Positions 10,950-54,075 of a stretch of 64,000 bases of DNA are shown piece after piece. Under the pieces are notes generated by a model. The model worked only from the letters and a program-made list of their open reading frames with translations. It was not told the origin of the DNA and made no database searches. Each line of letters begins with the position of its first letter. The first letter of the stretch is position 1. The stretch comes from Minisyncoccota bacterium (lineage in GTDB: Bacteria > Patescibacteriota > Minisyncoccia > UBA6257 > JAGOQP01), in contig JBAZTS010000001.1 in the NCBI GenBank assembly GCA_041661795.1, positions 124,161-188,160 of the forward strand, read 5' to 3'. A program made the position numbers and the translations under genes.

Positions 10950-11720
10950 CTATCTTGATTTAATATTATTGTACTTACCTATAAAAGTCAACCGGTGAAT
11001 TTTGGAAGGACCGTGTTTTTTGATGGCCTCTATGTGCTTTTTGGTTCCATATCCCTTGTGATGGTCAAATCCGTATTGAGGATATTTTTTGTGCAATTTG
11101 GTGATGTATTTGTCTCGGGTAATTTTAGCAACAATAGAAGCCAGAGACACAGCCGGAACTTTTTCATCGGCTTTGGGGAAATTTTTGAAAGTTAAATTCG
11201 TATGTTTATATTTCTTTATACTTTCATATTTCTGAATATTTATTTTTAAACTCCCATCAGCAATCACTTCACCATTACATTTAGAACGATCGTTCAAAAT
11301 GTAATGGTAGGATAATTTGTCTGACTTTCTCAATCTTTTCATTTTAACCATTGTTTTCTCAAATGCTTTTTGGGCGGCTAAATTACAAGCATTGCTGATA
11401 TTAATACCATCAATCTTTTTCTCGTTAACCCAAGCGCAGGAAAAAATAATTTTATTTTTCTTCACCCAAGAGAACCACTTGTATCTTTGCTTTTCTGAAA
11501 GATTTTTAGAGTCGGCCAGTTTGCGCGGATAATTGTATACCGTATACCGCCTGCCTGCCGGTAGGCATGGTATACCGTAATGCTTATACAGTTTTGATAA
11601 TTTTCTGTTTAAATCAAAAGATAAAATCACACATCCAACATAAACTCTACCGGCCAGTGGTCCCCGCCCGACCTCGTCTATACCGATAACATAGTCAATT
11701 TTTTTCATATATAACGTCAA
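10950..11720 (-). CDS. rnhB: ribonuclease HII (carries an in-frame repeat-derived insertion)
   Basis: IGIDEVGRGPLAG motif and downstream DSK. A ~20-aa insertion (KHYGIPCLPAGRRYTVYNYPRK) is encoded by the GTATACC/GCCTGCC palindromic element at 11535..11578. The start is probably the Met near 11708. Confidence 0.8.
   Translation of the reverse strand: MTLYMKKIDYVIGIDEVGRGPLAGRVYVGCVILSFDLNRKLSKLYKHYGIPCLPAGRRYTVYNYPRKLADSKNLSEKQRYKWFSWVKKNKIIFSCAWVNEKKIDGINISNACNLAAQKAFEKTMVKMKRLRKSDKLSYHYILNDRSKCNGEVIADGSLKINIQKYESIKKYKHTNLTFKNFPKADEKVPAVSLASIVAKITRDKYITKLHKKYPQYGFDHHKGYGTKKHIEAIKKHGPSKIHRLTFIGKYNNIKSR
11535..11578. repeat. GTATACC-GTATACC-GCCTGCCTGCCGGTAGGC-ATG-GTATACC palindromic repeat element embedded in rnhB
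   Basis: Seen in sequence: two tandem GTATACC heptamers, an imperfect GC-rich inverted repeat, and another GTATACC. The same heptamer recurs at the pilin-LamG loci. Confidence 0.6.
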
Positions 11721-25200: not shown

Positions 25201-25258
25201 CATATAAGTTAATATAAAATTGCCTTATATTAGTTTTTTTGATAATTTTAAAAATGAT

Positions 25259-25330: not shown

Positions 25331-25354
25331 CTGTTAATTAAAAAAACTACAAAT

Positions 25355-25580: not shown

Positions 25581-25600
25581 GTGGTTGTAAAATTGAATAT

Positions 25601-31644: not shown

Positions 31645-31713
31645 TTTACTAAGAGAGATGACTACGGATAATAACAAATTTATACCGATAATGTAAAACA
31701 GTCCTTTGTCGGT

Positions 31714-33243: not shown

Positions 33244-33245
33244 AT

Positions 33246-33656: not shown

Positions 33657-33996
33657 TTTCTCTTATAGAGTTCAAAACTTGGCTTGATGAAGATAATTTT
33701 ACTATCCAAACGACTTTATCATTGTTTATTTTTATCTTGTCTTCTGGACCCCAAACTGATTCTTTAAATTTTGACAAAGCAAGATTTTGCGTTTGAGAAT
33801 CTTTATTAAGATACCAAACATTGGAGAGCGAAAGATAAGGAAATCTGGAAAGTTTGCCAAAATAAATATCTCCGGTATCAAGATAGACAGCATAATAATC
33901 ACTGCCATTGGCAGTTCCTTTCCAATAAAGAAACCCGGCCACAAAAATTAATAAGACAACTAACACAACCAACAACGCAATTATTATTTTTTTCAT
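33640..33996 (-). CDS. hypothetical membrane-anchored protein in the pilus operon
   Basis: 118 aa with a single N-terminal TM helix (IIIALLVVLVVLLIFVAGFLYW). Confidence 0.4.
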   Translation of the reverse strand: MKKIIIALLVVLVVLLIFVAGFLYWKGTANGSDYYAVYLDTGDIYFGKLSRFPYLSLSNVWYLNKDSQTQNLALSKFKESVWGPEDKIKINNDKVVWIVKLSSSSQVLNSIRENEVTQ

Positions 33997-34020
33997 ATGA
34001 TTTGATTATAAACTATTTAT

Positions 34021-35568: not shown

Positions 35569-36760
35569 ATAAATTTTTTACCTCTGTTGGAGAAAGAGCG
35601 CGATTATAAATACGGACGTCGTCAATTAGACCTTTAAAATTGTAACCACCCACTATAAACCAATTTCCAAAGGCCCAATACTTAGTTGTTGGCAAGGTTA
35701 GAGATGCTGGTATTCCTCCGTTAAAACCACTAAAGCCGATATCTTGACCGTTAATGTATGCTTTCAATTTATTTGCATTACCAATTTGAGTTCCATCAAA
35801 CACAATTACTATATTATTCCAACTCCCAGCACTGTAGCCAGCAGTATTAGTAAGACCATAATTATTTCCTGCATCAGATACACTATCTGCTACAAAACAG
35901 TAAAAATCGGTAGATGCTGAATTACTCTTTCGTAATATAATTTGTGAATTTCCTGATGAGCTCCAAGAAGACCAGAGCACTCCTGATGGATTGATGACCG
36001 GTTCTGAAAACCAAATAGACCAAGTAACTTTGTTAAGACCATCCACAATATTTTTATTTCCAATATCAATATAATCACTGGCCCCATTAAAACTAATCGC
36101 TCCTCCAAGTTTCCCAAACGCCCAAGTCGTACCTCCACCGTTATTTGCTGTTCCGTTATTTGAATTTCCCGACACATCCTCAAGTCCCACGGTTGTGTCA
36201 TCAGCAATGATTCCGCTTGTTCCTCCGTCAAATGGCCAATATCCTACCAAAGAATCGTCTTGAGAAACGCCTATCTTTCCCTGCGAGCTAATAGAAACAA
36301 CAGCGGTATTGCTCCCTCCTTTCATTCTAACAACCAAAGAGTCGGATAAAATTGGCTTCCCCGATATGGCTATAAAAGATATGGTCTTTGAGCTCCCGTC
36401 AACCGGACTAACCAAATCCGTTACCGGATTTAACCCACTTTCCACAACAACCGAAGAAGTTGCATAAGAGGTTCCTGAAAATATTTGATAGTAGTCAATC
36501 GAACTAGTACTGTTGGTAAACTTTATGCTCCAGCCATAACCCCCTTCCTGATTAATTGACCTGTTTTGCGTATTTCTTATGGCTTCAACAATATTTTCCA
36601 CATCCAAATCAAAACTGTGCCTGTTTTTATAGTTTCCAAAACCTATAAAAGCGACTCCGGCCATAACGATTACAATTCCCACGGATATCAAAAGCTCAAC
36701 CATGGTAAAGGATTTCTTGCAAGCAAAAAATCTTTTTGTTTTTCCTTTTTTGTCTTTCAT
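35555..36760 (-). CDS. prepilin-type N-terminal domain protein with C-terminal LamG domain
   Basis: Leader MKDKKGKTKRFFACKKS, then FTMVELLISVGIVIVMAGVAF. LamG hallmarks (LVGYWPFDGGTSG..., WSIWFS, DDVRIYNRALSPTEVKNLY). Confidence 0.65.
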   Translation of the reverse strand: MKDKKGKTKRFFACKKSFTMVELLISVGIVIVMAGVAFIGFGNYKNRHSFDLDVENIVEAIRNTQNRSINQEGGYGWSIKFTNSTSSIDYYQIFSGTSYATSSVVVESGLNPVTDLVSPVDGSSKTISFIAISGKPILSDSLVVRMKGGSNTAVVSISSQGKIGVSQDDSLVGYWPFDGGTSGIIADDTTVGLEDVSGNSNNGTANNGGGTTWAFGKLGGAISFNGASDYIDIGNKNIVDGLNKVTWSIWFSEPVINPSGVLWSSWSSSGNSQIILRKSNSASTDFYCFVADSVSDAGNNYGLTNTAGYSAGSWNNIVIVFDGTQIGNANKLKAYINGQDIGFSGFNGGIPASLTLPTTKYWAFGNWFIVGGYNFKGLIDDVRIYNRALSPTEVKNLYDSY

Positions 36761-36778
36761 ATAAAATACAAACTACTA

Positions 36779-37987
36779 TTAAAAACTGCTTGTCAGCTGA
36801 TACACTGGAACAATAACTGCAAGAGCTATAGTTCCGACTACAATTCCTATAAGCATCAACATAATGGGTTCTATAAAAGCCACCAGAGATTTGACTCCGC
36901 CTTCTATTTCGTTAGAGTAGAAATCTCCCAATGTTAATAAAATGCTTTCTATGTGTCCGGATTTTTCCGAAACGGCTATTAAATTAGATACTACTTTGGG
37001 AAAAATCGGTTCTTTTTTAAATGCTTCTCCAACAGTCAACCCTTTTGATATTCCTTCCCTTGAAATTCTCATCATGGCATTTTTCAACTCAGGCAAAGCA
37101 ACCGATTCGGCTGTAATTTCTATAGCATCAAGTATAGGAAGACCAGAGGATAGTAAAGATGAAAGAGTTGTGGCAAATCTTTGTAAAGCAATTTGGTGAA
37201 TAACTTTTCTGATAACCGGAGTTTTTAGGGCAATATCAAACATAATTTTTCTTCCCGGTAAAGTTTTCAAGAAGAAGTATCCCCCGCCAATAAAAAATGC
37301 GGCTAATAACAACAAAAGCCAGACAAGATTATCTCCTACAAAAAGTCCCACAGTAAAAACAATTCTTGAAAATGTCGGCGGTTTCATGCCACCCGAGAGG
37401 AAAACATTGGCAATTTTAGGAAGAGAGAAACTAACCAAAAGCACAAGAATTAATATAGAAGTGAAGAAAAGAATAACAGGATAAGTCAAAGAGGCCTTTA
37501 TTTTTCCCGTTAACTCTTTCTCTTTTTCCAAAGAAACACTTAGTTGTTCAAAGACATTTTCTAAGTTACCGGAAACTTCTCCAGCTTTTATTAAATTAAC
37601 AAAAACTTGAGAAAAAGTTTTTGGGTATTTAGCAAAAGTAGTATAAAATGGCTGGCCTTTTTCAAGATTAGCCCTGACTTCCAACAGAAAAGATTTAACA
37701 GCCGGTTTGTCAAAATCTTCAACCAATATATCTATGGCCTTAAAAAGATCTGTACCAACTTTTAACATCAGAGAAAGATATTTGGTTAAAAAAACTTTAT
37801 CCTCTAGGGTGATTTTCTGGCCAGTTAGATATTTTAAATTAATACCTGATGTTTTTATCGGCTTTATAATAATTGGCCGAAGTCCCTGGGAAGCAATAAA
37901 AGCCAAAGCGTCGTTGGTTGTTTGACCTTCCGTTTCCCCCTCTACCATTCTATTGTCGGGCCTAATGGCCTTGTAGTAAAACCTCAT
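36779..37987 (-). CDS. pilC: type IV pilus inner-membrane platform protein PilC (GspF family)
   Basis: Two GspF repeats with three TM segments. 402 aa. Adjacent to the pilB ATPase. Confidence 0.85.
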   Translation of the reverse strand: MRFYYKAIRPDNRMVEGETEGQTTNDALAFIASQGLRPIIIKPIKTSGINLKYLTGQKITLEDKVFLTKYLSLMLKVGTDLFKAIDILVEDFDKPAVKSFLLEVRANLEKGQPFYTTFAKYPKTFSQVFVNLIKAGEVSGNLENVFEQLSVSLEKEKELTGKIKASLTYPVILFFTSILILVLLVSFSLPKIANVFLSGGMKPPTFSRIVFTVGLFVGDNLVWLLLLLAAFFIGGGYFFLKTLPGRKIMFDIALKTPVIRKVIHQIALQRFATTLSSLLSSGLPILDAIEITAESVALPELKNAMMRISREGISKGLTVGEAFKKEPIFPKVVSNLIAVSEKSGHIESILLTLGDFYSNEIEGGVKSLVAFIEPIMLMLIGIVVGTIALAVIVPVYQLTSSF

Positions 37988-37991
37988 GATG

Positions 37992-39704
37992 TTATTCCCT
38001 AATAACTCTCAGTACTTCCTCTATGCTCGTCATTCCTAAAGACGACTTTTTTAACCCATCTTCAAACATTGTTATCATTCCATTTTTTCTGGCAGTCATT
38101 AAAAGCAAATCTAAAGAAAAATTTGGATCAATTATTATTTTTCTTATATCTTCGTCAACTTCAAATGCTTCGTAAATTCCCATTCTACCTTTATACCCGG
38201 TTCCTCCGCAGGCCTTGCAACCCTTTCCTCTATAAAAAGTTTTGGGCATCTGAACATCAGGAAGATTTAAATCTTTTATCTGTATTTTTAATGAAGAAAC
38301 AAAGTTTTCCTCCGGAACAAAAGATTCAATACAGTCCACACATATTTTTCTTAACAATCTTTGGGCAACAACTAAATTTAAAACGGCAGCTGCCAAAAAG
38401 GGAGGGACTTTCATATCAATAAGACGAGGAACGGCTGTTGGGGCATCGTTAGTGTGGAGTGAGGACAAAAGTAAGTGACCGGTCAAGGCGGCATTAATAC
38501 CTATTTGGGCGGTTTCTTCATCTCTAATTTCACCAACCATTATAATGTTTGGATCTTGTCTTAAAATTGACCTTAAGCCAGAAGCAAAAGTTATCCCCGC
38601 AAGCGGATTTATTTGTATTTGATTTATATACCTGATGTTGTATTCAATAGGATCTTCAATGGTAACAATGTTAACTTGTGACCTGTTGAGCATATTTAAA
38701 ATTGAGTAAAGAGTCGTGGTTTTACCAGAACCGGTAGGACCGGTAACTAAAATCATCCCATATGTCTTTTTTATATTTTTTTCCACAATTTTAGCGGTTT
38801 CCTCCAACATTCCAAGCTCAGTTAAAGAAAGAGGTCTTTGAGTTCCGGGTAAAAGACGCATAACAATTTTTTCCCCATATAATGTAGGAATAACCGAAAT
38901 ACGAACATCTATCACAACAGAACCCGATTTATATCTGAAACGTCCATCTTGAGGTTTTTGATGCTCGTCAACTTTAAGAGCGCCAAGAAGCTTAATTCTT
39001 GCAATAATCGCCGAATGGACTTCTTTGGGGATTTCTAAAATTTCATAGAGTATCCCGTCAACTCTAAATCTTACCAAAATTTGGTCCTCTAAAACCTCTA
39101 AATGAACATCGGAGGAATTTAGAGAAGTAGCATATGAGAGCATATTGTTAACTATGTCAACTATGGGAATTTGAGTAGCCGCCTCTTCTTCTTTTGCGGA
39201 AGATATCTTTCTTTCCAGAGATGTTTTTATATTATCCTCTATGATTTTTTTAAAATCCTCAGTCAGTTGAGAGCCATAATAGGAAAATCCTTTAGCCAAA
39301 TCTTCTGGAGAAGCCAAGAAAGGCCTTATTTTAGCCGATATTTTCTTTTCCAAAAACTCAATTGTGGGAAGATCGGTTGGATCTTCCATGGCTACGTTTA
39401 TAGTTCCATCGGCATCTTTTAAAAAAGCAATAACGTTTCTTTCTCGGGCAAATTTTTCATCTACTTTTTCCAATACCGACTTATCTATAGTTCTTAAACC
39501 AAGATTAGCTCTCTCCACCCCAAAATAAGAGGATAGAAAATTGTAAAGATAATCCCTGCTAACAAAACCCTTAGAGATAAGCACATCTCCTATGTTCTGA
39601 TTCATTCTTGACGATTCATCAACAGCTTTATCAAATTGGTCTTCGCTTATAAGACCCTGATCAATGAGTATCTCTTTTATTTTTTGAGATGGGATTCTTA
39701 ACAT
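37992..39704 (-). CDS. pilB: type IV pilus assembly ATPase PilB (GspE family)
   Basis: N-terminal GSPII_E_N domain. Walker A GPTGSGKTT. Asp box, Walker B, and the His box HTNDAPTAVPRLIDM. Confidence 0.9.
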   Translation of the reverse strand: MLRIPSQKIKEILIDQGLISEDQFDKAVDESSRMNQNIGDVLISKGFVSRDYLYNFLSSYFGVERANLGLRTIDKSVLEKVDEKFARERNVIAFLKDADGTINVAMEDPTDLPTIEFLEKKISAKIRPFLASPEDLAKGFSYYGSQLTEDFKKIIEDNIKTSLERKISSAKEEEAATQIPIVDIVNNMLSYATSLNSSDVHLEVLEDQILVRFRVDGILYEILEIPKEVHSAIIARIKLLGALKVDEHQKPQDGRFRYKSGSVVIDVRISVIPTLYGEKIVMRLLPGTQRPLSLTELGMLEETAKIVEKNIKKTYGMILVTGPTGSGKTTTLYSILNMLNRSQVNIVTIEDPIEYNIRYINQIQINPLAGITFASGLRSILRQDPNIIMVGEIRDEETAQIGINAALTGHLLLSSLHTNDAPTAVPRLIDMKVPPFLAAAVLNLVVAQRLLRKICVDCIESFVPEENFVSSLKIQIKDLNLPDVQMPKTFYRGKGCKACGGTGYKGRMGIYEAFEVDEDIRKIIIDPNFSLDLLLMTARKNGMITMFEDGLKKSSLGMTSIEEVLRVIRE

Positions 39705-39743
39705 TTGTTTTTATTTTAACACAAAAAAGAAACTAAATAAAAT

Positions 39744-39775
39744 AAAAACACCCCACGTTACGAGGGGTGTTTTTT
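39744..39775 (-). terminator. intrinsic terminator after the major pilin gene (ACACCCCTCGTAACGTGGGGTGT + T-run)
   Basis: An 8-bp GC-rich stem followed on the minus strand by TTTTTATTTT. Confidence 0.6.
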
Positions 39776-39785
39776 ATTATTACAA

Positions 39786-40319
39786 TTACAAATTTAATCC
39801 CGGGTCAGTGCCGACTTCATAGATAGTCGTTGAATCTCCACCGTCGTTAAGTTCTTTGTTTGTAGTATATTTGCTACTTTCCAATTCAGTATTCACCTCA
39901 AATGTCTTATTTGTATTATCTCCTTTGTAGACATAGTGAAGCGTAGCACTAGTAACCGGATCTCTTGGTAAAGCAGAGATAGGAGAGCTTGGGTTGGCCA
40001 TGGTTGAAAAATCAACAGCAAACCATCCCGTGCCGTCAATAGCATAGATAAGTCTTTCTGTGGATGCTCCCAAAGAATACCCGGTAGTACCGCTTGATGA
40101 AAATGGACCGGCGGTAAACACAGGAGTAGTTGTAGCCACCAAATACAAAGAGACGGCATTTTTCATAGCATCAAAATCAGCCAATCTTTGCGTGTCTCTG
40201 GCTTGAGCTAAAAGTTCTGCTGGGTTTAAGACGACAACAACAGCCGCGGTTAAAACCGCTAATATTCCGATAACAACCAACAATTCAACTAAAGTAAATC
40301 CTTTTTTTGATTTTTGCAT
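39786..40319 (-). CDS. pilA: type IV major pilin (PilA-like)
   Basis: MQKSKKG|FTLVELLVVIGILAVLTAAVVVV is a class III prepilin leader plus hydrophobic alpha-1 helix. 177 aa. It has its own promoter and terminator. Confidence 0.7.
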   Translation of the reverse strand: MQKSKKGFTLVELLVVIGILAVLTAAVVVVLNPAELLAQARDTQRLADFDAMKNAVSLYLVATTTPVFTAGPFSSSGTTGYSLGASTERLIYAIDGTGWFAVDFSTMANPSSPISALPRDPVTSATLHYVYKGDNTNKTFEVNTELESSKYTTNKELNDGGDSTTIYEVGTDPGLNL

Positions 40320-43078: not shown

Positions 43079-43162
43079 CTAGTTTAGGGTTTAGGGAGAG
43101 AAGGTATTAGGGTATAGTTTTTTCTAGAACCCCATATCCTATCCCCTACACCCTTTTTAATT

Positions 43163-43897: not shown

Positions 43898-45352
43898 AAC
43901 ATCTATATCTTCCTGAAAACTCTGAGCTCTTGAGACAACTCTTTCTCCATATGTAGAAATATAGTATTTCCATCTTCCGCCGGCATAGTATTTGGCCGCA
44001 GCCACTTTTTCATCATACAAACTTCCACCGGCAGCTCCAGCACTTTTCAGATAAAGAGCCGTAGCCATAAAAGCATCCATATTGTTCCAAGGAGAAGATG
44101 GATTATTTCCCGTCAGGGCAGATACTTGCTCTTTATATCCATTCCAGGTAGAAGGAATAAATTGAGCCGGTCCCATAGCTCCTCCATAAGCTCCATCAGA
44201 AGGAATGGGGCAAGAAACAAAAATGCTGTCCGGATTTATTCCAAGTTCACTGGTAATTTCCAAAAATATTGGAATATCTCTTGTGGGATGCATAGTGGTC
44301 GGATTACTGGCTCTATCCGGATAATAAGGATTAACATTGTATTTACATTTTCCAACATTCCTTCCTAAAGCCGATTCTCTGTCTAACACAGCTAGTATTA
44401 AAGCGGCCCTTACACCGGTTGCGTCTTGAGCTAATTTGGCAAATTTATAGGCCTCGCCAAAAGACAACTCTCCTCCTCCAAAAAATTCAAAGATTCTACT
44501 TCTTATTTGAGCGGCAGTTTTTTGTGTTTCTTTTAGAAGATCCTGATATTTTGATTCTTGGCCTTTGGTGACTTTTAATAACTCTTTTTTGGAGTCCTCC
44601 GTTTTTTTAACCAAACTTCTTTGTGATTCTTGGTATGCCTTAAGTTGCGATATATCTTCATATTCCAAAGCTAATGCTTCTTTTTGATCAATTAATTGGT
44701 TTTTTAATCTGACTATTTCTTCCAAAGCAATTCTAAGATTATCTTGAACAGCCATAAGATTATTTATATCCAAAAAAAAGTCAGAGAGTTTTGGATTGGC
44801 CAAAACCATTTCAATTACGCTCGTGGTTTCGCTCTCATAAATATTTTGAAGTATAGAAGAGAGAGATTTTTTATTTATGGTTATATCGCTTTCCGTTTCG
44901 GTTATTTTGCTTTTGGTACTGTCAATTTCTGAATCTAGACGATCCAGATTAAGATTTATTGCTTTTATCTGAAGATTAAGTTTGGCTATCTTGGCATTTA
45001 TGGTCTTTATCTCCGATTCCAAGCTTTTGCCCTGTTTTTTATACTGTTCTACCGTGTTCTCATAATCACTAATTTGTTTTTCTAAGTCCTTTAACTGAGC
45101 TTCCAATTGAGCTCTTTCTTCTTCTCTGGTTGAAGCAGCAAAAAGATAGCCATTGTTTATAGGGGCATAAGCCGAACCTAAAATAAAAGAGAATATGGCA
45201 AAAGATATAATCACAAAAACAGATATCTTCTTCAAAGGAACAATGATTGTTTTGGTTCCCAAAGAAGAAAGGTTAATCCTGTTGAAATTAGACCTTCCTT
45301 TGCTGATATCTTCCGATTTTTTGATTATATCCTGAATGCGTTTATACATCAT
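43886..45352 (-). CDS. membrane-anchored coiled-coil protein with C-terminal lytic-transglycosylase/peptidoglycan-hydrolase-like domain (PcsB/CwlO-like architecture)
   Basis: N-terminal TM helix. ~250 aa of coiled coil. C-terminal motif [13 protein letters not shown] resembling the SLT-domain (MQFMPxTW) active-site region. Confidence 0.55.
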
Positions 45353-45395
45353 AAAATCAGGGCTGTCCCTTTATATATTATAACGAATAAATAGC

Positions 45396-45424
45396 AAAAT
45401 AAAACCCCTTTATAGAGGGGGTTT
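45396..45424 (-). terminator. intrinsic terminator after rplY (CCCCT-loop-AGGGG, T-rich flanks)
   Basis: AAAACCCCTTTATAGAGGGGGTTTTATTTTG seen in sequence. Usable on both strands. Confidence 0.45.
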
Positions 45425-46083
45425 TATTTTGCTTGTTCTGGAGTGGTAGCAGGGGCTTCTTGTCCTCCCTCTTGAGGTTGACCTTCTATTGGCTCAGCAC
45501 CTTCTACAACAGGAGGAGCTTCAACAACCTCTTCTTTCATCTGTTCAGCTATGGTGACAATAACACTTTCCAACTCATCAAGAATTTCTATTTTATCGGA
45601 TATTTTAATATCTTTGATATGTAAGCTTTGATGCAGATCAATAAGAGAAGATAAATCAATTTCTATAAATTGTGGCAAATCAGATGGCAGGGCTTCTACT
45701 TCTATCTTTTCAAGAGCCTTAACTAGGGTGCCTCCTTTTTCTTTAACAGCCGGAGCTTCTCCAATGAATTTTATAGGGATGTCGGCGGTTATCTTTTTAT
45801 CCATATTAACTTTATAAAAATCAATACTGATAAAACTATCGTTAAGCGGATTTCTTTGAACATTATAAATAAGAACCGGAACGGTTTTTCCTTCTATAAC
45901 AACGTTAACAATGCTGTTTTCTCCAGCTTCTTTAAATACCTTAGAAAATTCTTTTACGGGAACAGACAGGTGAATATTCTCAAATCCCTGTCCGTAAATT
46001 TCTGCCGGAACAAGCCCTTGGTCTAAAAGGGTTTCTAATCTTTTTCCTAATATTTCTCTTTTTTGAGCTATTATTTCTAACAT
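45424..46083 (-). CDS. rplY: 50S ribosomal protein L25 / general stress protein Ctc form
   Basis: N-terminal L25 beta-barrel region (LEIIAQKREILGK...). Acidic C-terminal extension typical of Ctc. Confidence 0.75.
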   Translation of the reverse strand: MLEIIAQKREILGKRLETLLDQGLVPAEIYGQGFENIHLSVPVKEFSKVFKEAGENSIVNVVIEGKTVPVLIYNVQRNPLNDSFISIDFYKVNMDKKITADIPIKFIGEAPAVKEKGGTLVKALEKIEVEALPSDLPQFIEIDLSSLIDLHQSLHIKDIKISDKIEILDELESVIVTIAEQMKEEVVEAPPVVEGAEPIEGQPQEGGQEAPATTPEQAK

Positions 46084-46180
46084 ATGAAATCGTTAACCGT
46101 ATACAGTATACAGGTATATAAGATAAACGAAAAAACAAGATAAATCAAGCTATTTATGCATCCGTTATTTTTTATAATTT

Positions 46181-47503
46181 TTAGTATAAAGAATATTTAC
46201 CGTCTAAATATTTTTCTACACTTTCGCGTTCATTGTCAGAAAGAGCTCTGTTATATACTATAATTTCGGCCATTTGTGAATTAGCACTGAGTGTTCCACC
46301 AATTGTATAAATTTCGTCGGTAAGATTAGGAACGGCGTTACAAGAATCACAGGTATAGAAAGACCCAATTGTTCCGTTATATCTCAATATTGGGTCCCTA
46401 TATCTATCTCCACTATTATTTGTCACAGAAAAAATACCGAAATTACTATAATCAAACCCCGTATTTCTCATGACTGAATATCCATCGGTATAACCGATAA
46501 CTCCATCAAAAGGGCCATTCCTATAATAAAGAATCCTTGTTGTTCCTCCTGCTCCAGAAGAAGATCCAAAGGAAAAGAATTTTACCCCATCTTCATACCA
46601 AGTCAAACTTTTTCCAACAAAGAACACTGAAGAAGCTCCAGAGCCACTTACTCCCAAAGCTCCTCCAGCCAAAGAATCATTTGCTCCGTCAAATTGGACT
46701 ACCGACTTTCCATTAACCTGGTTGGTTTTAAAAAGCGGTTTATAACTTACATTACTTTGTATGGCATCATTATTGTTTCCAGATAGATCATCCCAAGTTG
46801 AAATTGGATCATTATTAGAAAGATTTAGGGAGTCGGCTTTAAGCCATAATTTTGGGTCATTAGGTGACAAAAAAAGATTCATGCCAGCTTCAAATCTGAC
46901 GGGATCTCCACCTCCGTCACCAGAAGCAACTTCTTTTATCTTTTTTTCTGATTCCAAAAGAGCGGTCAAAATATATCCACCATTACTATCCACAGCATAA
47001 GCATAAAAATTAGATGTGGATACGGCATTGGTTTCATCTATAGGAAGATCAGATATAAAAGGTCCAACCGATGTTATTCTGGTAAAATCAATTGGAATCC
47101 AACCCGTTCCATCAACATTTTTAAAGGTTGAAGTAGGGGCACATTTGTAAGACCACCCAGAAATTGCGGGAAGTCCTAAGTTTGCGCATGTTGTAGAAGA
47201 ATCGGGAATGGAAATATATAAAGTATTAACGCTACCCAAAGACAAATTACCCAGTCCCGAGTATTTATATTTTTCAACGGCAATTTTAAGGTTGTTTAAA
47301 TCCGATATTCTTCTGGCATCCTTGCTTTCTTGTATAAAAGAAACTGGATTTAAAATAATAACTGTGGCCGCCGAAAGAACGATTATAATACCAACTGTTG
47401 TTAAAAGCTCACCCATAGTGAAGGAACGGGTATCGTATACCGTATACCGTATACCGGGATAGAGCAAATGCTTCTTAAGTTTAGATTTTATAAATTCAAT
47501 CAT
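46181..47503 (-). CDS. prepilin-type N-terminal domain protein with C-terminal LamG domain (mosaic paralog A)
   Basis: Leader MIEFIKSKLKKHLLYPGIRYTVYDTRS, then FTMGELLTTVGIIIVLSAATVII. LamG C-terminus (AEIIVYNRALSDNERESVEKYL). The leader contains a GTATACC x3 heptamer array. Confidence 0.65.
   Translation of the reverse strand: MIEFIKSKLKKHLLYPGIRYTVYDTRSFTMGELLTTVGIIIVLSAATVIILNPVSFIQESKDARRISDLNNLKIAVEKYKYSGLGNLSLGSVNTLYISIPDSSTTCANLGLPAISGWSYKCAPTSTFKNVDGTGWIPIDFTRITSVGPFISDLPIDETNAVSTSNFYAYAVDSNGGYILTALLESEKKIKEVASGDGGGDPVRFEAGMNLFLSPNDPKLWLKADSLNLSNNDPISTWDDLSGNNNDAIQSNVSYKPLFKTNQVNGKSVVQFDGANDSLAGGALGVSGSGASSVFFVGKSLTWYEDGVKFFSFGSSSGAGGTTRILYYRNGPFDGVIGYTDGYSVMRNTGFDYSNFGIFSVTNNSGDRYRDPILRYNGTIGSFYTCDSCNAVPNLTDEIYTIGGTLSANSQMAEIIVYNRALSDNERESVEKYLDGKYSLY
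47430..47456. repeat. tandem heptamer array (GTATACC)x3, 21 nt, in-frame inside the 5' coding region of the pilin-LamG gene
   Basis: GTATC-GTATACC-GTATACC-GTATACC seen directly. It encodes ...PGIRYTVYDTRS... in the leader peptide. Confidence 0.75.
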
Positions 47504-47532
47504 TTCTTCTGTATTCGGTATACGACGCCCAG

Positions 47533-48441
47533 TTATACGCCACTTAGTATTTTTATTTTATCCGACACCACTTTTTCCACTTCATGAACTACTTCGGGAA
47601 GTATCTTATAAGGAACGATTTCGTTGGGACGAGATAAAAGAGCCAAATCCAAACCTCTCTTCCAGGCAGTTCTAAGTTCTGTATTGATATGAACAATAGA
47701 TACTCCCGCCAAAACAGCCAGTTTTAATTGTTCGTTAGAAACCCCAGACGCCCCATGTAAAACCATGGGAATATCAATCATGCTTTTTATCTCTTTTATT
47801 CTCTCTACATCAAGATTGGGGTCGGAAGCATCCAAAAACATTCCATGCAGAGTCCCTAGTGCCGGCGCCAGTAAATCTATTCCCGTTTCTTCTATAAATC
47901 TTTTGGCATCTTCGGGTTTAGTCAAATCTTCTTTTTTAACAGAAACACCTTCTGGGATTCTATCTAAAATAACTGACCCGGAACCTATATATCCAAGCTC
48001 CCCTTCCACCAAAACATCGCAATTATTTTTCTGGTTATATTCTTTGACAAAATTAACAACCTCTTTTGTCTCTCTTATGTTTTCTTCAATATTTTCTTTT
48101 CCGGCATCAAACAAAACTGCGTCAAATCCGGCCTCAACCGCTTCTTTTATTTTACCAAAAGAATGCGTATGGTCAGCGTTAAGAAAAATAGGAAAATTTC
48201 CGCCCGAGGCGGATCCGTCTATGATGGAAAATTCTTCTCTTAAACTTTTTATAAGAGCCACAACTTGTTTTATGCCTATAAAATCTCTTTCCCCTTCTGA
48301 AACTCCTATAATAACGGGCTGTTTCAAAGCGTAAGCAGCATCAAAAATTCCCTTAAGAGCCGCCAAATCGGAGATATTAAAATGCCCAACAGCTACATTG
48401 TGTAACTGAGCATCTTTTATTATTTCTCGCAATGTTTGCAT
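47533..48441 (-). CDS. fba: class II fructose-bisphosphate aldolase
   Basis: Class II FBA/TBP aldolase family motifs (NVAVGHFNISD, LNADHTHSF, HGASG). Contains an in-frame GC-rich palindromic insert at 48200..48217. Confidence 0.8.
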   Translation of the reverse strand: MQTLREIIKDAQLHNVAVGHFNISDLAALKGIFDAAYALKQPVIIGVSEGERDFIGIKQVVALIKSLREEFSIIDGSASGGNFPIFLNADHTHSFGKIKEAVEAGFDAVLFDAGKENIEENIRETKEVVNFVKEYNQKNNCDVLVEGELGYIGSGSVILDRIPEGVSVKKEDLTKPEDAKRFIEETGIDLLAPALGTLHGMFLDASDPNLDVERIKEIKSMIDIPMVLHGASGVSNEQLKLAVLAGVSIVHINTELRTAWKRGLDLALLSRPNEIVPYKILPEVVHEVEKVVSDKIKILSGV

Positions 48442-48448
48442 GGACTTA

Positions 48449-49720
48449 TTATATACTAATATATCCTTTAGTGATATTTTCTTTAGTCATTTCTTCCATT
48501 TTCCCCTCACCAAAATAGGAAGAAAATATTTTATTCCATAGTGACTCCTGATGATGATAAAGATACTTAATCATTTCAACCTTTTTAACTAAAGCCATTG
48601 AGGTATCTATAAGATTAAAGCTGACTAGAACTTCTATCCCGGTATCAGTAGAAAAATAATCGCCTATCCAATTCAGCCCCGCCCAGAAAGCAAAATCTCC
48701 ATCCAAGCCATGTTTTTTTGCCAACTCAACAATATTCTTTTCTGCTTTCTCCCAATGCAAGGCCTCCGGGTTAACGTGAGGATAAAAAAGACGCCAGTCG
48801 TTTTCGTCGTCTTTGGCTAAATATCTTTGAGTAACCATCCAATCTCCTTCCTTTATCAGTTCCTTAGAATCAATTACGTCGCCTCTTAAAAGAGAGGAAA
48901 AATCTTCAAAAAAGTTATGATTTATTATCTTTTTTCCGCCCGAGGCGGATCCGCCTATGGCGGAGAATACATCCGAATAAAAAGATATTTCATTAACATA
49001 ATGGAATAAGAGAGCCACGGTTCTTATGAGTTCTCCGGGGATATCCAAGGATATAGGAATGACAAATATTATTCCTAATTCTTTTAAGTGGCTAATGTTG
49101 TGATATTTTTTTTCAACAAATTTCTGAGCCAACTCTTTCCATCTGTCGCTGATAGAAATGATTTCTATTGGCCTTATCTCAAAATCAGCGCTGGACAAAT
49201 CTTGATAATGCCTGATAAAAAACATATTTATCCATTCAGCTCCTTCTACAAATCTAAGGGCGCTGGCTACTTCCCTCCAGTCCTCTTTTTTGAGCATCTC
49301 TGAAACGCTTTGATAACCAAGTGCGGAAAGAATCTTTTTAGGCGGTTCTTTTTCCAATATTTCTATAAACTTGTCTTTTTTTATAAAAAATCCTTCTTTT
49401 TTACCAACCACCAGATTAACCGCCTCAATTATTTTTTGGCATCCACCAACTTCAAAATGACATGGATTTCCTAAAACCGAATTGAGAATTTTATCGTCCT
49501 TGTTTATTTTTCCTATAAGAGCGTCAAATATTTGTTTGGCGCTGGAATCTTTTTTGAGACCAAGAAAGCTTAGTTTTTCCAGCATTATTGCCTCATTGTC
49601 AGAGCAAATTTCATCAAGCATTCTGGCTTTATTGGTAATTTTGCCAAGCTTATCCTGAACGTTTTTTATAACATCTTTATCGGTTCTTAAAATTCTTGCA
49701 ATTTTTTCGTAGGATTCCAT
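48449..49720 (-). CDS. hypothetical protein (423 aa) sandwiched between two pilin-LamG genes
   Basis: No motif recognised. Carries the longest copy of the GC-rich palindromic element (48936..48963), encoding AIGGSASGGK. Confidence 0.5.
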   Translation of the reverse strand: MESYEKIARILRTDKDVIKNVQDKLGKITNKARMLDEICSDNEAIMLEKLSFLGLKKDSSAKQIFDALIGKINKDDKILNSVLGNPCHFEVGGCQKIIEAVNLVVGKKEGFFIKKDKFIEILEKEPPKKILSALGYQSVSEMLKKEDWREVASALRFVEGAEWINMFFIRHYQDLSSADFEIRPIEIISISDRWKELAQKFVEKKYHNISHLKELGIIFVIPISLDIPGELIRTVALLFHYVNEISFYSDVFSAIGGSASGGKKIINHNFFEDFSSLLRGDVIDSKELIKEGDWMVTQRYLAKDDENDWRLFYPHVNPEALHWEKAEKNIVELAKKHGLDGDFAFWAGLNWIGDYFSTDTGIEVLVSFNLIDTSMALVKKVEMIKYLYHHQESLWNKIFSSYFGEGKMEEMTKENITKGYISI

Positions 49721-49729
49721 AAATTTATT

Positions 49730-51055
49730 TTAATATAAAGCGTATTTGTTATTTAAATATTTTTCTACGCTTTGACGTTCTCCTGTGGTTAATGTGTGAT
49801 CATAAAGAATAATTTCAGCAATTTGTACGTTAGAAAAACCTTCCACATTACTAGCTCCTTGCGAAGCTCCGATTAAATATTCGTCGTCGTCAGTATTTGA
49901 AGTACCAGCACAACCATCAGCAGCGTTGTAACTATAAGCCGCTCCGTTGACATAGAGACCGCCAGAACAGTTAGTTCCTCCAGTGGAATCTTGTTGATCA
50001 ATTAATTTAAAAGAAGTTTGATCAAATCCTTCTCCGAATTTAATCCAAGCACCTCCCATCGATCTCCAGAAACTCAACGGAGCAGTTCTAAATCCGAAAT
50101 ATTTAAATTGTCCGTCTGCTCCGGTTGAAGAACCTAAATAAACAACAGCCACAGGATCTCCATACCAACTCAAACTTTTAGCTACTATAAATAAAGTTTG
50201 ACCTCTAGTACCAGAAATTCCTGTTGGTCCTCCAATTAGATAATTATCAATTCCATCAAATTGAACTACCGAATTTCCATTAACTTGATTGGTTTTTAAG
50301 ATCGGCTTATAACTTACATTACTTTGTACGGCATTATTATTATTTCCAGACATATCGTTCCAAGTTGAAATTGGATCATTATCAGAAATCCCCAAGGAAT
50401 CCGCCTTTAACCATAATCTGGGACCATTAGATACTAAGGAGAGGTCAGTTCCTTTTTCAAATCTAATTGGATCTCCACCTCCGTCATTAGAAGCAGCAGA
50501 AATAAATTTATTTGATTCTATAAGAGCTGCTAGTTTCCAAGATCCTCCTGGAATATACGTATAATAAAGTCCATCTGAAGCAGAGTTAGTGGGATCAATA
50601 GGAAGAGATGAAAGTTGAATAACGGATTGAGTAGTAAAATTGACAGGAATCCAACCTGTTCCATCTGTCTTGATAAGGTTAGTTATAGTAACACAATTAT
50701 ATATGTATCCCGTAGGTAAAGAAGGAAGACCAAGATTGTCGCATGTTGCTGAAGAATCAGGGATGGAGACATAGACGGTAAGAGATGTTCCAAAGGAAAG
50801 GGTGGGGTCTATGACTTCTAGGTTCTGGAGGGAGTTATTGAGTAAAGAGAGGTCTTGCATTCTACGAGAGTCCCTAGTTTGAGCAAGATAATCAGCAGGG
50901 TTGAGGACGATAATGACTGCGGTTGTGAGTACGGCAAGAATACCTATAACAACGAGGAGTTCTACAAGGGTGAAGGAACGGGAATTGTATACCGTAGACC
51001 GTATACAGGGATAAGAAAAATACTTCTTTAGTTTGGATTTAATAGATTTATTCAT
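49730..51055 (-). CDS. prepilin-type N-terminal domain protein with C-terminal LamG-like domain (mosaic paralog B)
   Basis: Leader MNKSIKSKLKKYFSYPCIRSTVYNSRS, then FTLVELLVVIGILAVL. The N-terminal third is near-identical to the 62398..63693 protein. The middle segment is near-identical to the 46181..47503 protein. Confidence 0.65.
   Translation of the reverse strand: MNKSIKSKLKKYFSYPCIRSTVYNSRSFTLVELLVVIGILAVLTTAVIIVLNPADYLAQTRDSRRMQDLSLLNNSLQNLEVIDPTLSFGTSLTVYVSIPDSSATCDNLGLPSLPTGYIYNCVTITNLIKTDGTGWIPVNFTTQSVIQLSSLPIDPTNSASDGLYYTYIPGGSWKLAALIESNKFISAASNDGGGDPIRFEKGTDLSLVSNGPRLWLKADSLGISDNDPISTWNDMSGNNNNAVQSNVSYKPILKTNQVNGNSVVQFDGIDNYLIGGPTGISGTRGQTLFIVAKSLSWYGDPVAVVYLGSSTGADGQFKYFGFRTAPLSFWRSMGGAWIKFGEGFDQTSFKLIDQQDSTGGTNCSGGLYVNGAAYSYNAADGCAGTSNTDDDEYLIGASQGASNVEGFSNVQIAEIILYDHTLTTGERQSVEKYLNNKYALY
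50987..51007. repeat. degenerate heptamer array GTATACC-GTAGACC-GTATACA in the 5' coding region of pilin-LamG paralog B
   Basis: Seen in sequence. It encodes ...PCIRSTVYN.... Further GTATAC motifs lie in the promoter region 51061..51090. Confidence 0.65.
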
Positions 51056-51088
51056 TTTTACGGTATACGATATACTGTATTTAGTATA

Positions 51089-52090
51089 CTATTTTCTCAA
51101 TATTCTTGCCGCTTCTTCTGGAAAAACAGAGTTTATTTCAACTCCTGTTCCTAATTCAAATCCAGCAGAAATATTGGACTTGGGAACAATCTCAATGTGC
51201 CAATGGTAGCGAGAGTGTTTATTTTTTTCAAAAACCGGGGCGGTATGAATAAAGAAATTATAATCAGGGTCATTAATATTTTTTCTGATTAAATTCAGAA
51301 TTTTTTGTAAAATTTGTGTGAGAAATGACAAGTTTTTTAAAGAAGCGTCTTCAAAATAAGCCGAGTGTTTTAAAGGAAAGAGATTAATCTGATACGGTTC
51401 TTTGGAAGCAAACGGAGTAAAAGCAATAAATTCTTTATTTTTAAAAACTATTCTTTTTTTATCTTTAATTTCGGTTTTAATAATTTCACAATGAATGCAA
51501 CGATGATATTTTCTATTATATTCAGATGAAGAATCTAAAGATCTTTTGATGGTATGAGAAACTACCGGTAAGGCCAAAATCTGATAGTGAGGATGAAAGA
51601 TTGAAGCTCCGGCTTGTGCTCCCCAATTATGAAATAAAGAAATATATTTAACTCTTTTATCTATAGCTAATTGTCTGTATCTTTTTTGCAAAGCCAAAAG
51701 AACATTTAAGGCCTGCTTGTCACCCAAATCAGGAAACGACTTAAAATGATTTCTGGTAATAAGCAGATCATGATGTCCAAACCCAGAAACTGTTTCATAT
51801 ATTCCCCTTTTTTTTATTTTAACGCTAACCTTAGGACCATCAAAAACGGCCGGATATTTATTTTCAAGAACTTGAAGTTCCCACTTTTCCAACGGCAGTT
51901 TTTCCGGAAACCAAAAATATGGATATCTATTACCATTTTTTTGAGGGTTCTCAAACGGACAAGAGTTTACAGGAGAAGGTTTCCTCTTAGGAGTTATTTT
52001 CTTTTTGAGTTCATTGGGTCTTTTGGAGCGCTTAGAATTAACCAAGACCCATTCTCCAGTTGTCACGTGATAGCGAAGTTCTGAATTCAT
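51089..52090 (-). CDS. galT: HIT-superfamily nucleotidyltransferase, galactose-1-phosphate uridylyltransferase-like
   Basis: N-terminal Zn-site-like NSCPFE. HIT-type FHPHYQI (HxHxQ) active-site motif. 333 aa. Family-level inference. Confidence 0.5.
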   Translation of the reverse strand: MNSELRYHVTTGEWVLVNSKRSKRPNELKKKITPKRKPSPVNSCPFENPQKNGNRYPYFWFPEKLPLEKWELQVLENKYPAVFDGPKVSVKIKKRGIYETVSGFGHHDLLITRNHFKSFPDLGDKQALNVLLALQKRYRQLAIDKRVKYISLFHNWGAQAGASIFHPHYQILALPVVSHTIKRSLDSSSEYNRKYHRCIHCEIIKTEIKDKKRIVFKNKEFIAFTPFASKEPYQINLFPLKHSAYFEDASLKNLSFLTQILQKILNLIRKNINDPDYNFFIHTAPVFEKNKHSRYHWHIEIVPKSNISAGFELGTGVEINSVFPEEAARILRK

Positions 52091-52092
52091 AA

Positions 52093-54075
52093 TTATTTTA
52101 ATCTGTTTTCATAATACCACTCAAACACTTTCTTGGCTACCGGAACAGCATTTAAACTACCCTCCTTGGCGTCTTCTATCAGCACTAAGACAGCTATTTG
52201 TTGAGGTATCGCAGATTCACCCTGATCAAGACGTGGATTGTCGCCGATATTCTCATCTGCGCTTATCTGCGTTGTTTCCTTTGGAAGCAAGTTGTAGCCA
52301 ACAAAAAATGCATTTACTTTGGCATTATTTTCTATCTGAGCACTTCCGGTTTTGGCGGCAATTTTTAAAGGAATACCATTCAATATATGAGAGGTTCCAT
52401 ATTCTTTTTCTACTCCATCCATCATTCCTTTTTCAACTTCGGAAAAATTATTAACATCAGAAAACTCCATCAAATCATAAGACGGATTTTTAGTAAAAAC
52501 AGATTCTTGTAAATTATTTTTAATTTCCTTTACTAAATAAGGATTGAAAAGTTTCCCCTTAGAATTAATGGCTGATATATATCTTAAAAGAGCTAACGGG
52601 CTAATCATTAAATCTCCCTGACCTATGGAAACGTTATAAGTATCTCCTATTCTCCAAATTTGACCCGTTCTTTCCTCTTTTTTCTCCGGATCTGGTAGGA
52701 CCCCAACCGATTCGCCGATAATATCTATACCTGTCTTTTTATCTAATAAAAACTTTTTCCAATAATCTATTAACCTATAAACCCCAAGACCCTTTAGATT
52801 TTCTCCGCCCAAGGCGGATCCGCCTTTGGAGGAAAATCCTCCACCAACTTCGTAGAAGTAAACATTGCTGGAACGAGCCAGGGCTGAATACAAATTAACC
52901 CAGCCATGTGCTTTCCAATCAACAAATCTTGAGGGTTTGTCTGGAAAATAAGGATTGGGAATTTCTATGTAACCGGCAGAAAAAATCGAATAAAAAGGAT
53001 CAACTACTTTTTCTTCTAAAGCCCCAAAAGCCACCAACGGCTTGATGGTAGACCCCGGGCTGTATATTCCAGAAATTATTCTATTAAATGTCGGCCTGAG
53101 AGAATCGGAAAAAAGAGAGGATGACAAGTTATTATTGTCAAAACTTGGCAAACTCACCATAGAAAGAATTTCACCGTTTGATGGATCCATAATAAGCCCA
53201 GCTCCTGATTTTCTGCCCAAAAAATTAAGTTGATTTTTAAGTTCCGTATAAAAGAACTTTTGTAAATCAGCATCTAAAGTAGTGGTCAAACTACTGCCCG
53301 AAACAGGATCGGAAAATTTTTTCTCTTCAATAGTATTTCCCAAAGCGTCTTTGAAAACCACCGTGCTTCCTTTTTTACCTCTAATATATTTATCGTAATA
53401 TGCCTCTAAACCACTTTTGCCTATTTCATCATTTAAATCAAAACTTTCGTCAGTGTCTATATCATTACGACTCACTAGTCCTACATAACCTAATACGTGT
53501 GAAAAAACCTCTCCGTCAATATATCTCCTGGAGAAATTGTTTTCTACCAGAAGAAAATCAAAATTGAGATTCTTTATAGCCAAGCTCTGTTCCAAAGATA
53601 TATTTTTTAAAAGAGTAAGATGCGATTGTCTCTCTAAATTAGCCGATAGAATTGAATCTTTTATGGTCTGTTTATCAAAAGGAACTATTATGTTTATTTT
53701 TTCTAAAAGATTATCCAATTCATCTCTTCTTTTTAGAAGTTGAGAAAGAGATAAGACCGCGTCAAAACTGGGATTATTGGCAACCAAAGATGTCCCATAT
53801 CTGTCATAGATAACTCCCCTTGGAGCTGTTAAAATAATTTCTTGTCCGGCATTGGCCAAAGCTCTAATTTTATAAAAATCATCACCAAATCCAATGTAAA
53901 TAAATCTAAAAGCAAACAACAGAATAACCGCAAAGATTACGAGCCCAACAATTTTGAACACAGAAAAAGAGACGGGTTTTTCCACGGCTTCTAAACCTTG
54001 GGAAAAATCGTCTAAAATCGCATCCTCTAAAAAAATCTCTTTTCTAGCCATAGTCCTAAGAAAAAGAACAAACAA
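52093..54075 (-). CDS. mrdA: penicillin-binding protein 2 (elongasome transpeptidase)
   Basis: N-terminal TM anchor. Transpeptidase motifs STIKP (SxxK), SSN-like, and KTGSA (KTG). Directly downstream of mreBCD. Contains an in-frame palindromic insert at 52805..52832 encoding KGGSALGGE. Confidence 0.8.
   Translation of the reverse strand: MFVLFLRTMARKEIFLEDAILDDFSQGLEAVEKPVSFSVFKIVGLVIFAVILLFAFRFIYIGFGDDFYKIRALANAGQEIILTAPRGVIYDRYGTSLVANNPSFDAVLSLSQLLKRRDELDNLLEKINIIVPFDKQTIKDSILSANLERQSHLTLLKNISLEQSLAIKNLNFDFLLVENNFSRRYIDGEVFSHVLGYVGLVSRNDIDTDESFDLNDEIGKSGLEAYYDKYIRGKKGSTVVFKDALGNTIEEKKFSDPVSGSSLTTTLDADLQKFFYTELKNQLNFLGRKSGAGLIMDPSNGEILSMVSLPSFDNNNLSSSLFSDSLRPTFNRIISGIYSPGSTIKPLVAFGALEEKVVDPFYSIFSAGYIEIPNPYFPDKPSRFVDWKAHGWVNLYSALARSSNVYFYEVGGGFSSKGGSALGGENLKGLGVYRLIDYWKKFLLDKKTGIDIIGESVGVLPDPEKKEERTGQIWRIGDTYNVSIGQGDLMISPLALLRYISAINSKGKLFNPYLVKEIKNNLQESVFTKNPSYDLMEFSDVNNFSEVEKGMMDGVEKEYGTSHILNGIPLKIAAKTGSAQIENNAKVNAFFVGYNLLPKETTQISADENIGDNPRLDQGESAIPQQIAVLVLIEDAKEGSLNAVPVAKKVFEWYYENRLK

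Follow-up and report, generated by a model that had tools for sequence, protein, structure and literature searches.

Cyanobacteria carry short tandemly repeated repetitive (STRR) heptamers, which are dispersed heptanucleotide repeats. TAACTGA heptamer repeats, known from Beggiatoaceae, Cyanobacteria, and Bacteroidetes, are also dispersed and lie beside start codons, and their copies inside open reading frames (ORFs) sit at the periphery of the protein (PMC4679880). Here we describe a heptad array in a 64 kb stretch of DNA (the window) from a bacterium of the Paceibacterota, within the Candidate Phyla Radiation (CPR), in which three perfect tandem copies of GGTATAC lie in frame in the leader-coding part of pil1, a gene for a pilin-like protein. 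By analogy, the TAACTGA/STRR heptamers appear to be the nearest published kind. Both have a unit of 7 nt repeated 2-6 times in tandem; their loci are numerous, dispersed, and mostly intergenic, often only a few nt ahead of start codons without a Shine-Dalgarno motif; ORF-internal copies are peripherally placed; and the distribution across phyla is patchy. The GGTATAC family differs in its unit (GGTATAC/NNNATAC), in its palindromic core, in its frequently inverted arrays around a spacer, in having no stop codon on either strand, so that it can lie in frame anywhere, and in its occurrence in CPR, including housekeeping enzymes and prepilin leaders. Our literature search found no description of GGTATAC-type heptads in CPR housekeeping genes or prepilin leaders, and on heptamer tandem repeats in CPR it turned up only the Borg papers.

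In the opa genes of Neisseria, CTCTT repeats of 7-28 units occupy the signal-peptide coding region. The best-studied heptamer switch, the (ATCTTTC)n tract of hmw1A in H. influenzae, naturally comprises 11 repeats or more (PMC12721329). As in opa and hmw1A, the pil1 array is built from a tandem unit that is not a multiple of three, in the leader-coding part of a surface-adhesin gene, where a one-unit change shifts the frame, and as in hmw1A the repeat takes part in a hairpin, in our case a predicted one. Unlike these systems, pil1 has 3 units, no copy-number polymorphism was seen, and essential genes carry the repeat too. The array resembles the leader-embedded opa repeats in its design but not in the length of its tract. 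Rickettsia palindromic elements (~100-150 bp, with a defined consensus) are inserted in frame in protein genes; the heptads are similarly short, hairpin-prone repeats tolerated in frame in surface loops and peripheral segments of conserved proteins (RNase HII, LigA, IleRS, and the pilin leader), but their arrays of a 7-nt unit are 14-45 nt long, lack defined ends, and show no sign of transposition. Finally, the omega repressor of pSM19035 has contiguous 7-bp WATCACW repeats, direct and inverted, that are bound by ribbon-helix-helix dimers. The heptads share with them the arrangement of contiguous 7-bp units, in either orientation, close to the 5' ends of genes; in contrast to those operators, heptad arrays are also found in coding regions and at gene 3' ends, and their unit is not conserved at orthologous sites.

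An earlier note on this DNA had reported three perfect tandem GTATACC units in the N-terminal coding region of pil1 and proposed that they form a contingency switch. The units are there: the + strand at 47435-47455 reads GTATACC GTATACC GTATACC with zero mismatches, and Tandem Repeats Finder reports 47434-47456 as 3.3 copies at 100% match. On the coding (-) strand these letters are (GGTATAC)x3, at nt 49-69 (codons 17-23) of the ORF at 46181-47503, and encode G-I-R-Y-T-V-Y inside MIEFIKSKLKKHLLYPGIRYTVYDTRS|FTMGELL, where the bar marks the predicted prepilin cleavage site. This is the sole perfect tandem repeat in the window with at least 3 copies of a 5-10 nt unit, and comparable perfect repeats arose in 0 of 200 second-order Markov simulations. 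GTATAC itself occurs 17 times against 6.0 expected, while GTATACNGTATAC, a pair of GTATAC one base apart (allowing up to two mismatches), occurs 12 times against 1.0 expected and was matched in 0 of 100 shuffles. The pil1 array is real and non-random, and it is one of five heptad clusters in the window.

Our favoured interpretation, to which we give a probability of roughly one half, is that the pil1 array is one in-frame copy of a heptad-repeat family with dispersed loci, and that it is tolerated because its leader is cleaved off. The family is observed directly. The exact 21-mer was found at 62 loci in GTDB species-representative genomes, where about 0.3 would be expected by chance on our own rough estimate, and several genomes hold 5-9 loci each. 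The genomes with the 21-mer include Wolfebacteria, Kaiserbacteria, Saccharibacteria, and Paceibacterota, as well as Chloroflexota, Bacteroidota, Longimicrobiales, and Deltaproteobacteria. About two thirds of the loci are intergenic, often right after a stop codon or between convergent genes; the perfect units sit within longer degenerate heptad arrays (GGTAGAC, GGTGAAC, GGAATAC, and others), and an inverted array often lies nearby, giving hairpin-like structures. In viral contigs, (GTATACC)3 was found at 7 loci and (GTCTACC)3 at 11, against 2 and 1 for control heptamers, so that these two units are 4-10x commoner than the two controls, on small numbers. Proximity to start codons recurs as well: in the window, 7, 7, and 15 nt separate the arrays from the ATGs of pil1, pil2 (a paralog of pil1), and the gene for ribosomal protein L25, with no Shine-Dalgarno motifs, and elsewhere an array ends 6 nt before ftsX (L059) and 15 nt before an aminoacyl-tRNA synthetase gene (L023).

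Copies inside ORFs lie in permissive segments, namely cleaved leaders and insertion points relative to solved homologs. The LigA gene of a Wolfebacteria genome has two perfect four-unit GGTATAC arrays in frame (L008, 1933-1960 and 3268-3295), which encode TVYRIPYTVY and GIRYTVYGIP and fall at gaps relative to E. coli LigA (2owo), and a Kaiserbacteria IleRS gene has a 3-unit array in frame (L060, 4716-4736). Since such arrays occur in rnhB, ligA, and ileS, an ORF-internal array is not diagnostic of a contingency locus in these genomes, and essential genes can evidently keep perfect arrays of 3-4 units stably enough for them to last. As a separate observation, the Kaiserbacteria IleRS carries a histidine-phosphatase (His_Phos_1) domain inserted at residues 426-581.

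The rnhB example lies in the window itself. A fifth heptad cluster at 11535-11575, overlooked by the earlier note, is in frame within the RNase HII gene, in an insertion region that varies among orthologs; its GC-rich hairpin core (GCCTGCC-TGCC-GGTAGGC on the + strand, encoding IPCLPAGR) stands between CGGTATA heptads. In the RNase HII gene of contig L088 (56% identical; 10140-10190), (CAAAATA)x3.1 replaces the (CGGTATA)x2 of the window around an unchanged hairpin core, the unit being altered in concert on both flanks. Judged from this sequence comparison, the swap would fit slippage-driven concerted turnover and would argue against sequence-specific recognition of GTATAC. The RNase HII family shows a further peculiarity: Paceibacterota orthologs P0123, P0139, P0142, and P0157 (alignment A3) have an N-terminal extension that is a degenerate duplicate of the catalytic YIIGIDEVGRG plus 'ASKKRAS', as though an insertion had duplicated ~30 nt of 5' coding sequence.

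The leader of pil1 is unusually long on account of the repeat, as the earlier note had said, with 27 aa against ~7-17 aa in the other pilin-like genes of the window. The excess is a ~15-aa HLLYPGIRYTVYDTR segment that holds the array and is missing from family leaders such as M..F.KSKLNNKS|FT. Across 120 homologs, leaders range from 4 to 51 aa with the cleavage context [S/G/A]|FTL[IV]EL; most family members have short leaders, and leader inserts are sporadic. The predicted cleavage region of pil1 (..DTRS|FTMGELLTTVGIIIVLSAATVIILNP) has S at -1, F at +1, and E at +5, and the protein follows the type IV prepilin pattern of a charged leader, a small residue at -1, F+1, E+5, and a ~20-aa hydrophobic helix. 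The label 'pilin-LamG' used in the earlier note stands by way of homologs that carry PF07963 and PF13385 and of the window's own pilin-LamG protein at 62398-63693, which carries N_methyl and to which the pil1 pilin domain is 39% identical. It has no direct Pfam call behind it: neither N_methyl nor Laminin_G_3 was called on the 46181-47503 protein, and PF07963 (N_methyl) gave no match even at E<=5, a miss that is probably due to Met at +3 and Gly at +4. When the first 60 aa were searched by HMMER against 1.84 billion representatives, only 4 weak matches came back, none informative. At 31714-40319 the window encodes PilM, PilC (T2SSF), PilB (T2SSE), and a major pilin; the window proteins that were scanned included no prepilin peptidase (peptidase A24).

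That the array is part of a translated leader, as the earlier note assumed, is supported by several observations. There is no ATG, GTG, or TTG between the pil2 array and S|FTLVELL, and the pil2 leader must therefore be translated; a second gene caller, on a near-identical ENA contig (L089), gives 440 aa for pil1 and 441 aa for pil2; and the ATG at 47503 lies in an A-rich context typical of starts in this Shine-Dalgarno-less genome. No Shine-Dalgarno-like motif was found in the 30 nt upstream of the window ORFs, regions that are A/T-rich.

Copy number was compared across strains, which the earlier note had suggested as a check on its switch, and it did not change. In the window the pil1 gene has three units, and so do its counterparts in ENA contig L089 (99.98% identical over 12.66 kb) and in JGI contig L063 (= L064), which represents a related, syntenic strain with a background identity of 85-92% to the window; Logan contig L090 is 100% identical but covers only the L25-proximal array and stops short of the leader. 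No length variant was present in four assemblies from two strains, a small sample of consensus sequences only, and a gap-tolerant metagenome scan for 2-6 units had L064 (= L063) as its sole match. Whole arrays are gained or lost between the strains: L063 has no array upstream of L25 and none in pil2, whose 18-aa leader (MTKKIFENNKRFIQNTSS) has TTTATAC AAAATAC at the array site and whose upstream region has AGTATCT heptads.

From these observations we infer the following origin. The array would be a local copy of a dispersed 7-nt simple-repeat family (GGTATAC, with variants NNNATAC and GGTNNAC) whose heptads may arise and turn over through replication slippage and, in tightly packed CPR genomes, would settle at the starts of genes and in coding segments that tolerate them. 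In pil1 this would have been a ~45-nt in-frame insertion into an ancestrally short prepilin leader, tolerated there because the leader is cut off: prepilin peptidase would remove the leader, including GIRYTVY, and leave the mature pilin-adhesin unaltered. Rare slippage by one unit either way would knock pil1 out, without amounting to a dedicated high-frequency switch. A side effect is the inverted repeat formed with the heptads 7 nt upstream of the ATG, which gives a predicted 16-19 bp stem around the start codon. Consistent with a neutral history, the pil1 and pil2 leader codons differ by 10 nonsynonymous and 3 synonymous changes (our own count, alignment A2), a divergence that looks neutral, as if under no protein-level constraint. 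If this interpretation holds, then finding a perfect heptamer array near the start of a surface-protein gene in such tiny genomes would be insufficient grounds for inferring phase variation, given that ligA, ileS, and rnhB carry the same arrays. More widely, a GGTATAC-type heptad family is common to distant phyla and prepilin leaders repeatedly harbour small repeats, which bears on how CPR bacteria, dependent on pili for host attachment and DNA uptake, diversify or regulate their many pilin-adhesins.

Several points weigh against this interpretation. The evidence from the bacterium's own genome comes from the 64 kb of the window, in which the period-7 signal is modest (1.7x Markov simulations at lag 7 and 1.5x at lag 14); the same signal is unremarkable in L088, and we do not claim heptad periodicity as a genome-wide property. 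Prepilin leaders account for 3 of the ~17 CPR array loci, far above the share of leaders in a genome, and this recurrence may reflect selection rather than tolerance. The stems predicted around the two start codons beat shuffled sequences (z -2.9 and -2.4). In addition, the pil1 5' region is 96-99% identical between the window and L063, above the background, which could be constraint on the module or a recent recombination tract, and an assembly consensus would hide minority length variants.

The alternative that fares best, although we consider it unlikely, is cis-regulatory: the leader array and the inverted heptads upstream would form a stem that holds the start codon in its loop, abuts the site where ribosomes land, and throttles pilin translation in this Shine-Dalgarno-less genome; translation would then proceed through coupling to the upstream gene, through a helicase or temperature, or through RNase III cleavage. 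RNAfold pairs 47511-47531 with 47427-47447 in a 19-bp stem (dG -34.5 kcal/mol, z -2.9), whose 63-nt loop (47448-47510) contains the start codon of pil1, and the paralog has a predicted 16-bp stem that also encloses its start codon (z -2.4 to -2.6). With no Shine-Dalgarno sequences in the genome, a stem of this kind beside the ATG could hold back initiation or tie it to translational coupling. In its favour, the stem is predicted in both paralogs, extends in pil1 past the heptads into the flanks (UGGG/CCCG, GUC/GAU), and is 96-99% conserved as a module in L063; the upstream heptads stop exactly 7 nt before both ATGs (those at 47511-47531 in the case of pil1); other genes are preceded by A/T-rich, unstructured sequence that has no Shine-Dalgarno motif. 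Coupling is made plausible by spacers of only 29 nt (fbaA stop to pil1 ATG) and 33 nt (galT stop to pil2 ATG) between co-directional genes. In size the pil1 stem also suits RNase III, for which the window has a gene at 9555-10247, and the heptamer-repeat hairpin of hmw1A is an RNase III target (PMC12721329).

Against a regulatory stem, GTATAC is palindromic, so that any two neighbouring copies pair, and the antisense strands fold equally well (-33.7 and -28.4 kcal/mol), which gives no pointer to RNA over DNA. The pil1 and pil2 stems are paralogous copies and do not count as independent; L063 pil2 is without the stem element (z -0.5); and the relatives' orthologous heptads (AAAATAC) are unable to pair. 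A start-codon bracket was also sought in two further pilin genes with leader arrays (L010 and L016) and was found in neither, the arrays there folding on themselves. An Rfam scan of 44000-53000 (E<=1) gave three chance-level matches (E 0.5-0.9), none at the array. The earlier note had placed further GTATAC units in 'promoters' of both genes; the units exist, but they lie in the short intergenic spacers, in neither of which a sigma-70-like site was predicted, by a promoter scan that was overall at shuffle level. No terminator was predicted between fbaA, pil1, and L25.

The switch proposed in the earlier note, in which a slipped-strand contingency tract toggles pil1 OFF and ON while the degenerate pil2 is locked ON, is in our view quite improbable. 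Such a tract would vary which pilin-adhesins an episymbiotic CPR cell puts on show. Its premise about the reading frame holds: the computed ORF shrinks to 26-38 aa with 1, 2, 4, or 5 units and stays open with 3 or 6 (440 or 447 aa), so that gain or loss of one unit does break the frame. The product, moreover, is a surface pilin-adhesin; the CTCTT repeats of Neisseria opa are likewise placed in a signal-peptide coding region; arrays of 3-4 units recur in other CPR prepilin leaders; and the P0029 leader differs from those of P0017/P0020 by 7 aa, the equivalent of 3 heptads. However, there are 3 units here, and known switches need long tracts, at least 11 heptads in hmw1A (PMC12721329). The constant length in both strains, the persistence of perfect 4-unit arrays in essential ligA and of a 3-unit array in ileS, and the turnover of the unit at orthologous sites all speak against a contingency function, and every pilin array found is in frame. 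The adhesin domains also vary between strains by heavy substitution and recombination (patches of 62% and ~50% identity), which offers an alternative route to variation.

A broader proposal, which we hold to be about as doubtful as the switch, is that selection favours the settling of heptad and hairpin repeats in the disposable CPR prepilin leader, where they would act as low-rate frameshift switches or start-masking stems. GGTATAC arrays lie just upstream of the prepilin cleavage motif in three other CPR lineages: in Wolfebacteria as four units (L016, ...ARGIRYTVYGIRS|FTVVELV), in Saccharibacteria (L010, ...GIRYTVYIPRARG|LTMLET), and in another member of the Paceibacterota (L024), where (GTATACC)3 and, after 35 nt, GCTATAC/GCTGTAC x4 precede RG|FSLIELL. 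The long leader of L065 has GTTAGAA-type heptads (x7), that of L066 (100-200) a palindromic insert between duplicated S-F-T codons, and those of L091 (700-740), L092 (750-800), and L093 (95-140) perfect palindromes. Were this proposal true, the recurrence of GGTATAC in four CPR lineages together with heptads or palindromes in every long leader examined would mean selection, and a regulator-poor episymbiont could vary which pilin-adhesin paralog it displays via leader repeats.

Apart from that proposal, long CPR pilin-LamG leaders have some structural traits of their own. Inserts or palindromes characterize those of P0091, P0099, P0044, P0021, and P0016 as well as L066 and L091-L093; the inserts are flanked by duplicated S-F-T codons (TCCTTCACC ... 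TCCTTTACC), and the palindromes lie just upstream of the cleavage-site codons (CTATCCCAAGGGATAG x2; CCTCCGGCGG-ACC-CGCCGGAGG). In L024 (reverse complement, ~2150-2700), the heptad-leader pseudopilin gene is directly downstream of a prepilin peptidase-like gene, recognized by eye from its C-terminus.

Very improbable, in turn, is that the heptads are sites for a multimeric nucleic-acid-binding protein co-regulating L25, pil1, and pil2, either as a DNA operator array of the omega repressor type or through a HutP-like RNA-binding ring that contacts a triplet every 7 nt. The units are indeed palindromic and contiguous and keep a 7-nt register; three neighbouring genes have them at their 5' ends, in both orientations and in register with the ATG; and the sense strand, both in the window and at related Paceibacterota loci, shows 'ATAC' once per 7 nt. 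Nevertheless, no candidate regulator was identified, heptads also lie inside rnhB, ligA, and ileS and between convergent genes in other phyla, and the L25 array is missing in the sister strain. The unit is not conserved at orthologous sites either: non-palindromic AAAATAC/CAAAATA heptads take the orthologous positions in relatives, which weakens the idea, raised in the earlier note, that GTATAC is a regulator site.

Least probable of the readings weighed is translation from the internal M30 (47414-47416), which would give a 411-aa protein, as in the JGI call, and leave the array in the 5' untranslated region only. Two JGI calls (P0001 and P0002) begin at MGELL, Pfam N_methyl is without a match on pil1, and Met at +3 and Gly at +4 are atypical for the pilin family. 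Yet this start would remove the S|F cleavage site, it follows C/T-rich sequence unlike that before other window starts, the ENA call is 440 aa, and no start codon follows the array in the pil2, L016, L010, and L024 genes. By reasoning, we set aside an invertible promoter (the inverted repeats flank only ~63 nt, the paralogs are co-directional, and no recombinase was seen in the scanned set of window proteins), programmed frameshifting (a slippery XXXYYYZ site is lacking), and an effect of restriction sites (outside the arrays GTATAC occurs 5x, near the ~6 expected for the whole window).

Coordinates of the heptad arrays, predicted stem arms, and genes in the window
Feature	Position	Strand	Remarks
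pil1	46181..47503	(-)	440-aa pilin-like protein with divergent LamG-like C-terminal domain, from homologs; 440 aa called in L089
Class III (prepilin) leader of pil1, 27 codons, MIEFIKSKLKKHLLYPGIRYTVYDTRS	47423..47503	(-)	cleavage predicted before F28, from family alignment
(GGTATAC)x3 perfect heptad array	47435..47455	(-)	codons 17-23 (GIRYTVY) of prepilin leader
Inverted heptads (mRNA: UGGGCGUCGUAUACCGAAUAC)	47511..47531	(-)	in 29-nt fbaA-pil1 spacer; 5' arm of predicted 19-bp stem
Array units 2-3 + GAUACCCG	47427..47447	(-)	3' arm of predicted stem
Heptads TGTATAC TGTATAC GGTTAAC	46092..46118	(-)	15 nt upstream of ribosomal protein L25 start; missing in strain L063
pil2	49730..51055	(-)	441-aa paralog, 48% identity; leader MNKSIKSKLKKYFSYPCIRSTVYNSRS|FTLVELL; N_methyl 27 bits (cut-off 21.2)
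Degenerate array TGTATAC GGTCTAC GGTATAC in pil2 leader	50987..51007	(-)	3' arm of predicted 16-bp stem
Heptads AGTATAC TAAATAC AGTATAT CGTATAC CGTAAAA	51056..51090	(-)	five in register, abutting pil2 ATG
5' arm of predicted pil2 stem	51059-51075	(-)	
RNase HII in-frame insertion, ~26 aa, encoding ..YGIPCLPAGRRYTVYNYP..	11520..11618	(-)	relative to E. coli 7uwe

The degenerate array in the leader of pil2 reads GTATACC-GTAGACC-GTATACA on the + strand, exactly as the earlier note had given it, and the first of the five heptads before the gene overlaps the galT stop codon. The units that the same note had put 3' of the first gene are also present, but their position is better described as 15 nt before the L25 start. 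Gene callers mis-start heptad-leader genes: the JGI calls give 411 instead of 440 aa for pil1, losing the whole leader, and 376 instead of 441 aa for pil2, starting beyond the N-terminal transmembrane helix. At their other ends the two genes diverge between strains in a mosaic, recombination-like pattern, the C-terminal adhesin parts being 62% identical to L063 in pil1 (46387-46586) and ~50% in pil2 (49752-50512), with many gaps.

Other repeats in the window are of a less regular kind. Two heptad-like runs lie in the LeuRS gene (29206-31677, -), at 30068-30096 (TCCCAAC x4.1) and 30872-30899 (AAAATAC GAAATAC GGCATAC GATATAC, coding strand), the second of which falls, by eye, in the conserved ...IRIFTTRPDT region and has the same length as in E. 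coli. Between two + strand genes at 43079-43162, (GTTTAGG)x2 is followed by GGTATTAGGGTATAG ... CCATATCCTATCCCCTACACCC, forming an inverted heptad-like hairpin. The spacer between the RNase HII gene and a downstream 179-aa gene has a 14-nt tandem repeat (TTAGAGAATAGTGA x2.3) at 10874-10906, and a tRNA-rich intergenic region at 25062-25600 has the ~50-nt ggcggcccgacaaaaataaagacccttttttgggtttttatttttgttgtg twice, which resembles a tRNA 3' end plus terminator.

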